From sequence record SRR22947725_1507: 47,989 nt of DNA. The stretch is one strand, 5' to 3'. Each line of letters opens with the position of its first letter. Within the stretch, counting starts at the first letter, position 1. The notes under the pieces are model-generated. The model was not told the origin of the DNA. It did no database searches and saw only the letters and a list, made by a program, of their open reading frames with translations. The position numbers and the translations under genes are program-made. Below are positions 26,502-28,810 of this stretch, piece after piece.

Positions 26502-27068
26502 ATGTATAAATTAATTTTACTTTTCACTGTCCTACTAATACTCTCATGTTCAGAAGATAATAGCAATCAACAACAAGAACAACAACCGGTAGTAGTTCAG
26601 GAAACTGTGGAAGTATATTTATTAAATAGCCTTAATGACTCAAGAGGTTATTGCATCGATATGATGGGTTATAAAACGGATGCCGATGCAACTAAATCAT
26701 TACAAGCACATTCGTGTTATTCATATCAAGGTGAAATTTCAGTAGATCAGGGTTTTGATAAAGCTAGAATTCTTAGTGAGGAATTTTACATCCCCCATTT
26801 TAATACGTGTATGGAAGCAGATAAAATTGAACCTTCATCATCGTTAAAGTTAAGCAGTTGTGACACTAATGATAAACAAAAATTCATACTTCAAAGCGAT
26901 GGAAAAATTCAGCCTAAAAATGATTTGAGCTTATGCCTAACTGTTTCGGAGAATTATAGAGAAGGCGGAGGTGGAAACCCTGTTCACTTAATTCGAAATT
27001 TGACTTTGGATAATTGTGATGAAACGTTTTCATCCAGACAAAAATGGGGCATTCGAAAAACCAATTGA
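26502..27068 (+). CDS. Ricin B-type (beta-trefoil) lectin lipoprotein
   Basis: Lipobox ILSC; three Cys-pair repeats (YCID..HSC, TCME..SSC..QKF, LCLT..DNC..QKW). Confidence 0.75.
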   Translation: MYKLILLFTVLLILSCSEDNSNQQQEQQPVVVQETVEVYLLNSLNDSRGYCIDMMGYKTDADATKSLQAHSCYSYQGEISVDQGFDKARILSEEFYIPHFNTCMEADKIEPSSSLKLSSCDTNDKQKFILQSDGKIQPKNDLSLCLTVSENYREGGGGNPVHLIRNLTLDNCDETFSSRQKWGIRKTN

Positions 27069-27083
27069 TAGAATAGTTTTTTC

Positions 27084-27107
27084 ATAGGTTAATTTAACCT
27101 AACTTTG
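27084..27107 (+). promoter_or_regulatory. DtxR/IdeR-like operator overlapping a -7 promoter element
   Basis: Perfect 8-1-8 palindrome TAGGTTAA-T-TTAACCTA (27085-27101) and TAACTTTG at 27100-27107. Confidence 0.55.
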
Positions 27108-27111
27108 CATT

Positions 27112-27181
27112 TCCTAAATGAAGAGGTTGAATTGAAAAGCTATGGTTGGCTCTCTTTTCGACCTTTTCGCTTTTTATAGGA
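27112..27181 (+). ncRNA. Candidate structured small RNA (or terminator hairpin)
   Basis: 12-bp stem 27120-27131/27157-27168 with two G-U pairs, an inner stem, then GCTTTTT; directly downstream of the orphan promoter. Confidence 0.35.
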
Positions 27182-27343
27182 TTAGTTCTTCACCACCTAA
27201 TACGTTAGCTCTTCGTTATTTGACTTGTCTGTTGCTTTTACGATATATGTAGCTGTAGACAGGTGCTCCACCAGTATAGCGTTTCTCTCCTTGCCCAAAT
27301 CCAATCACAGGTACAATAAGCAGTATTAAAAGTAATTTTTAAT
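27182..27343 (-). pseudogene. Collapsed remnant of a T9SS-secreted protein gene
   Basis: KLLLILLIVPVIGFGQGEKRY with no valid start codon, joined out of frame to VEHLSTATYIVKATDKSNNEELTY*VVKN*. Confidence 0.7.
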
Positions 27344-27415
27344 TATTTATGTTTTAATAAATATATCTAGCGTAATATGTATGTTGCAATAGGTCAGTTT
27401 ATACGTAACTACAAG

Positions 27416-28810
27416 TTACTTTCCAATACAGAAATTAGCAAAAATGTTACCAAGAATGTCATCTGTTGTGACTTCTCCTGTAATGGTGCCGAGTTCATGT
27501 AAAGACTGACGAATATCAATTGCCAACAAGTCGCTACTGCGGTTTTCCACAATGCCTTGGGTAACCTCGTTGATGCTTTTAAATGCGGCTTGCAGTGCAA
27601 CCCAATGCCGTTGATTACTCACCAATGCACTTCCAGTATTCCATTGCATTTGCGAGCTAAAGCGTTCAGTAAGCATATCAATTCCTTCTCCAGTTTTGGT
27701 GCTGATCGCAATAGAATCAAAAACAAGCGAGTCGGTTTTTAACGCCAGCAATTCATCCATATAGTTCTGAAGAGTTTCTTGTTCAATAAGATCTTTTTTA
27801 TTGAGCACCAAAAGTAATGTGCAATCTTCTCTATGAAGCTCCTTTAAGGCTTTGTTGGTTTCTTCAGGAGTTTGTGTCGTAGGGTCTACCACATAAACAA
27901 GAATTCGTGCTTTCTCAATCTTTTCTTTGGTACGTTTTACGCCCATGGCTTCAATGGTGTCGGATGTTTTCCGAAGGCCAGCAGTATCTATAAAGCGGTA
28001 TTGAATGCCTCCAATGCTAAGGGTGTCTTCAATGCTATCTCGAGTCGTCCCTGCAATAGCTGAAACCAAGGCCTTTTCTTCTTGTAGTAGGGCGTTTAGT
28101 AAGGATGATTTACCCGCATTGGGCTTCCCAATTAATGCTACTGGGATTCCGTTTTTCAGTGCGTTGCCCGTAGCAAATGAGTCCAATAAATTTTTTAGGG
28201 TTTCACGAATTTCACCAACCAAATGGTTTAATTGTTTTCTATCCGCAAAAGCAACATCTTCTTCGCTAAAATCCAATTCTAATTCAATTAGCGATGCAAA
28301 TTCTAGAAGTCGTTCTCGAAGCTGTCCCAAGCTGGTGCTGATTCCACCACGCAAATGTTGTACCGCAATATGATGCGCTGCTTCCGATTCTGAAGCGATA
28401 AGATCTGCCACGGCTTCCGCTTGGGCTAAATCCATCTTTTTGTTTAAAAAGGCACGGAGTGTAAACTCACCGGGTTCTGCCAATCGTGCTCCTAAATCTT
28501 GTAGCGTTTGAAGGATTTGTTGTTGTACATAAACCGATCCGTGGCATGAAATCTCAATCACATCTTCACTGGTGTATGTGTTTGGGTTTTTGAAAATAGA
28601 AACCAATACTTCATCGAGGATTTTGGTGTTTTGATAAAAATCACCCAATAATACCTGATGGCTTTTTTGTAGGGCAACTTTTTTCCCAAATCGTGATTTA
28701 AAAACCTGTTCAGCAATCGAAATAGCACGGTCGCCACTTAGCCGTATAACAGCAATGGCGGCACTTCCTGGCGCCGTAGAAAGCGCTACTATGGTGTCGT
28801 TAATGTTCAA
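27416..28810 (-). CDS. mnmE: tRNA modification GTPase MnmE
   Basis: DTIVALST, GEFTLRAFLN, GKPNAGKSS, GTTRD, DTAG, NKKD and terminal FCIGK. Confidence 0.98.
   Translation of the reverse strand: MNINDTIVALSTAPGSAAIAVIRLSGDRAISIAEQVFKSRFGKKVALQKSHQVLLGDFYQNTKILDEVLVSIFKNPNTYTSEDVIEISCHGSVYVQQQILQTLQDLGARLAEPGEFTLRAFLNKKMDLAQAEAVADLIASESEAAHHIAVQHLRGGISTSLGQLRERLLEFASLIELELDFSEEDVAFADRKQLNHLVGEIRETLKNLLDSFATGNALKNGIPVALIGKPNAGKSSLLNALLQEEKALVSAIAGTTRDSIEDTLSIGGIQYRFIDTAGLRKTSDTIEAMGVKRTKEKIEKARILVYVVDPTTQTPEETNKALKELHREDCTLLLVLNKKDLIEQETLQNYMDELLALKTDSLVFDSIAISTKTGEGIDMLTERFSSQMQWNTGSALVSNQRHWVALQAAFKSINEVTQGIVENRSSDLLAIDIRQSLHELGTITGEVTTDDILGNIFANFCIGK

Follow-up and report, generated by a model that had tools for sequence, protein, structure and literature searches.

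A candidate small RNA gene shared within a single genus of marine Flavobacteriaceae with small genomes

Features of the spacer between the lectin lipoprotein gene and mnmE

The window, a stretch of 47,989 nucleotides from sequence record SRR22947725_1507, contains a 347-bp spacer (27069-27415) between two convergent genes, and this spacer holds a perfect palindrome, a promoter box of the Bacteroidota type and an imperfect hairpin with a T run directly behind it (Table 1). The palindrome, the TAACTTTG box, the hairpin, the T run, a five-codon ORF and an outer pairing had all been described in the original prediction, and each was found where it had been placed. The outer pairing is optional: TCCTA (27112-27116) can pair with TAGGA (27177-27181). 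The element belongs to uncultured marine Flavobacteriaceae with assemblies of 1.0-1.8 Mb (metagenome-assembled genomes, MAGs). Streamlined marine Flavobacteriaceae have few transcription factors and no Hfq, and the regulatory RNAs of the uncultured, genome-streamlined members of the family are, to our knowledge, almost unknown.

Table 1 Coordinates of genes and sequence features at the locus, numbered from the first letter of the window
Feature	Position	Strand	Basis or remark
Lipoprotein gene, 188 aa, Ricin-type lectin domain	26502-27068	+	Pfam
Perfect 8-1-8 palindrome TAGGTTAATTTAACCTA	27085-27101		Overlaps -27 to -11 of the predicted promoter
-7 box TAACTTTG, Bacteroidota sigma-A type	27100-27107	+	Sequence; consensus TAnnTTTG
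Candidate small RNA, ~60-65 nt	27112-27176	+	Start predicted from the -7 box, end from the T run
Mini-ORF MKRLN*	27118-27135	+	ATG AAG AGG TTG AAT TGA; inside the 5' arm of the hairpin
Imperfect long hairpin	27119-27169	+	Folding and RNAalifold consensus
Main stem	27119-27131 with 27157-27169	+	Folding; includes G-U pairs
Short inner pairs	27134-27135 with 27153-27154	+	Folding
Apical stem	27138-27142 with 27147-27151	+	Folding
Loop UGGU	27143-27146	+	Folding
T5 run right behind the stem, intrinsic-terminator tail	27171-27175	+	Sequence; terminator-like site on the plus strand in a consensus scan
mnmE/trmE	27416-28810	-	Convergent with the lectin gene

Beside the hairpin block, the minus strand carries the remnant of a gene for a T9SS-secreted protein (27185-27338). 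Positions 27185-27283 correspond to the last 33 residues of genes that are intact in two relatives (188 aa in L149 and 213 aa in L148; 91% and 85% identity, respectively), with an in-frame stop five codons ahead of the end. Positions 27291-27338 lie in another frame, lack a start codon and match the signal peptide of the same two genes, the middle of the gene having been deleted. In L149 the homologous protein is a cupredoxin that ends in a Por_Secre_tail domain.

Both strands of the region 27108-27200 were folded. The plus strand reaches -26.3 kcal/mol (z -3.6; 1 of 200 shuffles as good) vs -17.6 kcal/mol on the minus strand (z -1.4), and the plus-strand fold is the hairpin of the original prediction, whose G-U pairs form on that strand only. 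The predicted RNA itself folds at -23.1 kcal/mol (z -4.4), a value equalled by none of 200 shuffles, and the corresponding 65-nt RNA from four variants representing different lineages gives z values of -3.6 to -5.5.

Each of the 27 variants of the element described below has the promoter box at this position. It takes the form TAnnTTTG in 7 and TAnnTTCG in 18, with TACATTTA or TACATTAG in the remaining 2. The -7 box of Flavobacterium psychrophilum spans -12 to -5 (PMC9723704), and transcription would therefore start near 27112. For F. johnsoniae, no -33 motif could be identified (PMC7366714). A promoter that needs no -33 motif fits the observation that conservation of the element ends ~21 nt upstream of the predicted start, across differing gene contexts. 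A box at fixed distance, albeit of exact consensus in only 7/27 variants, supports the prediction that the candidate RNA has its own promoter.

Conservation, structure and changing neighbours of the hairpin block

Conservation was assessed in a comparison set of mnmE neighbourhoods from species-representative genomes. The 72-nt block at 27108-27179 is ~88-93% identical in relatives, against just 71-73% for the adjoining mnmE DNA, and the spacer outside the block is unalignable between the window and its relatives. Over the 74 nt from 27104 to 27177, identity is 88-92% in six loci and 93% in L026, and locus L077 shows 83% identity over 195 nt. A covariance model (R1) built from nine copies (alignment A1) and run on the window with filters off gives a sole strong match, 27108-27179, at 98.8 bits. 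In the Flavobacteriaceae genus to which L026 belongs, the same model finds a strong copy in 15 of 29 genomes, always exactly one. It finds no copy in the 32 relatives searched from beyond this genus, where diverged homologues may escape a model made from such close sequences. Across a family sample of 151 genomes, the only matches are in the query genome (G001) and one weak match (E 0.003).

Among 76 other loci, which comprise the mnmE neighbourhoods of more distant Flavobacteriaceae together with L001, L151 and L163, R1 returned weak terminator-like matches only (best 26.9 bits). The block is absent from the ~100-400 nt downstream of mnmE in L067, L068, L071 and L072, and L080 likewise lacks it; L078 and L079 offer almost no sequence downstream of mnmE to inspect. 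Scans with an exact-core pattern, in which 15 of 16 genome loci and 16 of 19 metagenome loci were true copies, gave 0 matches in viral contigs. The hairpin of the window matches no Rfam 15 family at E values of 10 or below, and those of L149, L150 and L153 match none at 1 or below; a match to ncr952 that touches the palindrome is weak, scoring 16 bits where the threshold is 100. None of the papers searched contains the core 17-mer, and a literature word search on marine flavobacterial small RNAs returned nothing on the element.

After removal of duplicates (L148 is the same as L026) and of the unrelated matches L179, L192, L203 and L207, the variant alignment (A2) comprises 27 sequences. Loops, bulges and the single-stranded 5' tail, UCCUAAAU, are invariant among them, although invariance in columns 27-51 of the 11 sequences obtained from the metagenome scan alone is partly imposed by the search pattern. 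The T5 run is present in 27/27 variants, and conservation ends directly after it.

The RNAalifold consensus contains 18 pairs, and every one of them can form in all 27 sequences (0/486 pair cells broken). Six pairs vary and all six changes preserve pairing, one as G-C/A-U/G-U and five by wobble. L150 and L193 gain two further pairs through two linked changes. Read on the plus strand, 414/414 of the paired cells remain paired vs 343/414 on the minus strand; the 71 mismatched cells on that other strand indicate that selection acts on the plus strand. A single pair varies on both of its sides, and the observed covariation score was reached by 19 of 500 shuffles. Formal covariation is weak because variation is so small, and with covariation this thin the main support for the structure is conservation and energy.

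The genes around the block change within the genus. The upstream gene encodes the lectin lipoprotein in the window and L148, a SnoaL-like lipoprotein in L152-L157 and other small proteins in L149 and L150. Upstream of the block in L147, L158 and L160-L162 lies a divergent gene for an OmpA-like lipoprotein, and in L159 a gene resembling those of membrane transporters. These divergent genes (L147, L158-L162) are 336-650 nt away, and there is no co-oriented gene for the hairpin to terminate. The downstream gene is mostly convergent, being mnmE, a gene for a T9SS-sorted protein or another, and in at least two genomes the block and mnmE are on different contigs. Across L147-L162 the site has the character of a hot spot where genes for small secreted proteins are gained and lost. 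The flanking genes in L148, L160 and L162 include some that encode a tail-fibre-like coiled coil at the C-terminus. The loops and the promoter box are kept through these rearrangements, which is not expected of a plain terminator.

Coding potential in the block is low. The mini-ORF reads MNWSN* in relatives vs MKRLN* in the window; it starts with ATG in 23/27 variants and TTG in 4/27, and its TGA stop is kept in 25/27. In the other 2/27 (L150 and L193) the in-frame TGA is replaced by GGA, which is not a Cys codon, a point that bears on a selenocysteine reading, and the replacement fuses both short ORFs into one of 19 codons. Changes in the second in-frame ORF (MVGSLF..LFAF) are nearly all non-synonymous, only one substitution type, located in a covarying pair, being synonymous, and its C-terminus is free to vary after the T run. 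Most substitutions in the mini-ORF alter the amino acid and are better explained by base pairing than by coding, so that it is probably not a gene. No ORF beyond ~36 codons was found at the block in relatives. The fallback offered in the original prediction, that the block is the leader of a decayed metal-regulated gene, is ruled out by relatives that all lack a long ORF here and by conservation that ends at the T run.

The palindrome and metal regulation

The palindrome had been read as a DtxR/IdeR operator that confers a response to iron or manganese. The 19-mer at 27084-27102 agrees at 15/19 positions with the DtxR/IdeR iron box, whose consensus is given as TTAGGTTAGCCTAACCTAA, a 19-bp inverted repeat, in PMC7762939. 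The outer TAGGTTA/TAACCTA arms are identical, and the mismatches fall on the first base and the three positions at the centre. When the window was simulated 300 times as a first-order Markov sequence, matches of at least 15/19 arose 0.10 times per window and in 9% of simulated windows, and 1.4 perfect 8-1-8 palindromes are expected per window vs 3 observed. As RNA, the palindrome forms a weak 7-bp hairpin (-5.5 kcal/mol, z -1.0). Judged by shuffled folds and by Markov simulations, respectively, the long hairpin exceeds chance, whereas the palindrome and its DtxR likeness do not clearly do so.

The palindrome is also restricted in distribution, being present in only 3/27 variants (the window, its closest relative L148 and the metagenome contig L206); sister lineages have TATAACTATTTAACATA in its place. 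The DtxR N-terminal domain (PF01325) was found above the Pfam cut-off in 0 of 5 and then in 1 of 29 genomes of the genus (MAGs), and G001, the closest relative, is among those without it; the same search was positive in 12-13 of 14 control genomes. The sole exception, G159, carries a 219-aa DtxR-family gene, and its copy of the element (L155) lacks the palindrome. No regulon of such boxes emerged in G001, where 11 sites lie within 3 mismatches (1 perfect and 10 with 3 mismatches) vs 35 for a reversed control pattern. The proposed operator and its metal response gain no support from these results on relatives, namely the palindrome in 3/27 variants, the lack of a DtxR-family gene in 28/29 genus genomes and the absence of an excess of boxes in G001. 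The original proposal of a metal-responsive small RNA accordingly divides: the small RNA part gains from a single-copy block with conserved box, T run and paired structure, and the metal-responsive part fails, as far as relatives can show, on regulator, regulon and operator conservation. A general warning follows, in that a 15/19 likeness to a textbook operator can be within chance in AT-rich DNA, and regulator, regulon and conservation are needed before metal sensing is inferred.

The exact 17-mer palindrome occurs at 65 loci across 185,579 species genomes and is always intergenic because it has stop codons in every frame. The 68 outward ORFs beside it include 8 of the PadR family, 0 of the DtxR family and 1 that is iron-linked, a siderophore-interacting protein in Frankia. 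In the PadR loci (L003, L011, L035, L041, L042, L052, L061 and L066), which make up 8 of the 65 and come from Bacillota, Actinomycetota and Verrucomicrobiota, TAGGTTAANTTAACCTA stands 3-153 nt ahead of the PadR-family gene; the palindrome is at ~2501-2517 of these loci, and at 336-352 in L066. From this placement, TAGGTTAANTTAACCTA looks like a widespread PadR autoregulatory operator. The PadR domain (PF03551) is absent from G001, G003, G005 and G204 and occurs once in G002. None of the 40 main window ORFs scanned (36 + 4) belongs to the PadR family, an ECF sigma factor being the only regulator family among them. In the window, the palindrome is a late, lineage-specific addition to the promoter; it may be a chance sequence, a weak terminator of the upstream lectin gene or an operator for another factor.

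An identical 24-mer, comprising the palindrome and TAACTTTG, occurs in an unrelated Bacteroidetes MAG (L001 4001-4024, the same as L060), where the intergenic spacer is flanked by genes for a glycosyltransferase and a membrane protein. By a rough estimate, the chance of this coincidence between the window and L001 is of order 1 in 100. The MAG of L001 (G204) has an mntR-mntH pair, the upstream region of which lacks the palindrome box, and near-matches in G204 number 35 vs 153 for the control; neither a DtxR-type nor a PadR-type explanation for the shared 24-mer was found in L001 and G204. In the pair, at 1489-3167 of L211, the gene for an NRAMP (MntH-like) transporter comes directly after that of the 218-aa DtxR-family protein, and the spacer upstream of the pair contains a 9-1-9 AT-only palindrome, TTTAATTAATTTAATTAAA. 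In five Nostocales loci (L013, L017, L022, L036 and L037), the 17-mer palindrome follows TTGCACAG and precedes a hairpin, ~120-255 nt from a glutathione S-transferase-like gene, a shared context that suggests a real conserved site in those genomes. Units that include TAGGTTAACTTAACCT are repeated several times in tandem in a Bacteroidales MAG (L034, ~2450-2600).

Interpretation and comparison with known systems

On balance it is probable, though well short of certain, that 27100-27176 constitutes a self-contained small non-coding RNA gene conserved within one small-genome marine flavobacterial genus. In the scheme that we favour, the housekeeping Bacteroidota sigma factor would read TAACTTTG (27100-27107), transcription would begin near 27112, and the RNA would fold into the single long imperfect hairpin (27119-27169) and end at its U5 tail (27171-27175), giving a transcript of ~60-65 nt. 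By analogy with other Bacteroidota small RNAs, it would most likely act in trans through base pairing with mRNAs, probably by way of its invariant 5' tail and the weakly paired, invariant apical half. Trans-acting base pairing in this Hfq-less phylum is described for GibS and Rfp18 (PMC7366714, PMC9723704). Target predictions for the candidate RNA are at background: RNAduplex against 38 start regions of the window gave a best value of -30.9 kcal/mol vs a shuffled-RNA mean of -31.3 kcal/mol, and the 11-mer complementary to the 5' tail is as frequent as its control, with 1-4 occurrences in each of 5 genomes. Since mnmE or a different convergent gene points towards it, the hairpin would probably halt transcription arriving from the other side as well.

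Other functions for the block were weighed against this interpretation. That it is simply a conserved, possibly bidirectional intrinsic terminator, closing the upstream and convergent genes without a separate functional RNA, is unlikely. In its favour, the hairpin and T5 run sit between convergent genes in the window and most loci, exactly where a terminator of such genes is expected, the convergent gene of L148 and of L149 has its stop codon within a few bases of the T run, and a consensus scan flags a terminator-like site. The scarcity of the exact TAnnTTTG consensus (7/27, with TAnnTTCG in 18) also counts against a separate RNA gene. A terminator alone, however, does not account for loops, bulges and a 5' tail that stay invariant while spacers are unalignable and mnmE retains only 71-73% identity, for a -7 box that travels with the block, for the six loci without a co-oriented upstream gene within 336-650 nt (L147, L158-L162) or for a minus strand that has 71/414 mismatched pair cells and no T run after the stem. 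The strong differences between flanking genes on both sides within the genus, and the decayed gene remnant right beside the block in the window, would suit a site acting as DNA, either a recombination or attachment hot spot or an integron-like folded cassette site. Such a site is nevertheless highly improbable given that each genome, like the window, has one copy and no array, that the 3-kb loci contain no recombinase gene, and that the entire sequence is conserved, not only its ends, with a box and T run that are signals of a transcription unit. A shade less probable still is a tiny peptide (MKRLN/MNWSN or MVGSLF..LFAF) serving as a leader peptide or small hydrophobic toxin; two short ORFs do lie in frame with start-like and stop-like triplets mostly kept, and GGA fuses them into 19 codons in L150 and L193, but ATG gives way to TTG in 4/27 variants, KRL to NWS, the second ORF shows only one synonymous type of change, its C-terminus varies freely after the T run, and most loci have no co-oriented downstream gene to attenuate.

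How the promoter of the RNA might be controlled is a related question. Repression by a DtxR/IdeR/MntR-type metalloregulator bound to the palindrome, making the RNA responsive to Fe or Mn, draws on the 15/19 consensus match, on the position of the palindrome over -27 to -11, on the 219-aa DtxR-family gene of G159 (1/29 genus genomes) and on the mntR-mntH pair in the unrelated MAG with the identical 24-mer. We regard it as the least probable of all the readings, since the palindrome occurs in 3/27 variants and is missing from the L155 copy in G159 itself, 28/29 genus genomes, including the palindrome-sharing G001, have no DtxR-family match above the cut-off, near-matches in G001 (11 vs 35 in the control) and in the unrelated MAG (35 vs 153) show no excess, the mntR-mntH upstream region of that MAG lacks the box, chance alone would give 0.10 matches of 15/19 per window, and the 68 ORFs at the 65 palindrome loci include none of the DtxR family and one linked to iron. 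A variant of the small RNA gene reading, for which we see a slim chance, is that the RNA is genus-wide and its promoter was rewired in one sub-lineage, where TATAACTATTTAACATA-type DNA would have become a perfect 17-bp operator for a new PadR-like, DtxR-like or other repressor. If true, the rewired promoter would represent natural rewiring of a small RNA regulon in streamlined ocean bacteria.

As a sharply bounded, single-copy and strongly conserved candidate of 64 nt, the element offers a probe for metatranscriptomes and a test case for small RNA action in the phylum. Metal-repressed small RNAs are its closest counterparts under the original prediction: RyhB is reportedly repressed by Fur and MrsI by IdeR, and the candidate resembles them as a small RNA with a palindrome over its promoter. 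Unlike in RyhB and MrsI, the operator of the candidate varies among orthologues, no matching regulator gene was found in 28/29 genus genomes and G001 has no regulon of similar boxes. With intrinsic terminators between convergent genes it shares a G-U-containing stem, a T run and the convergent setting, and it differs from them in keeping its loops, in having its own promoter box and in occurring without a co-oriented gene. At ~64 nt, the candidate RNA is much shorter than GibS, which is roughly 145 nt long. It further differs from GibS and Rfp18 in consisting of a single hairpin with only ~7 unpaired nt at the 5' end and in having no Rfam family. The resemblance to GibS of Bacteroides thetaiotaomicron (PMC7366714) and Rfp18 of Flavobacterium psychrophilum (PMC9723704) is otherwise broad: all three stand alone, with a TAnnTTTG-type box and a Rho-independent terminator, are AT-rich, strongly folded and conserved within a genus or little beyond, and belong to a phylum without Hfq or ProQ.
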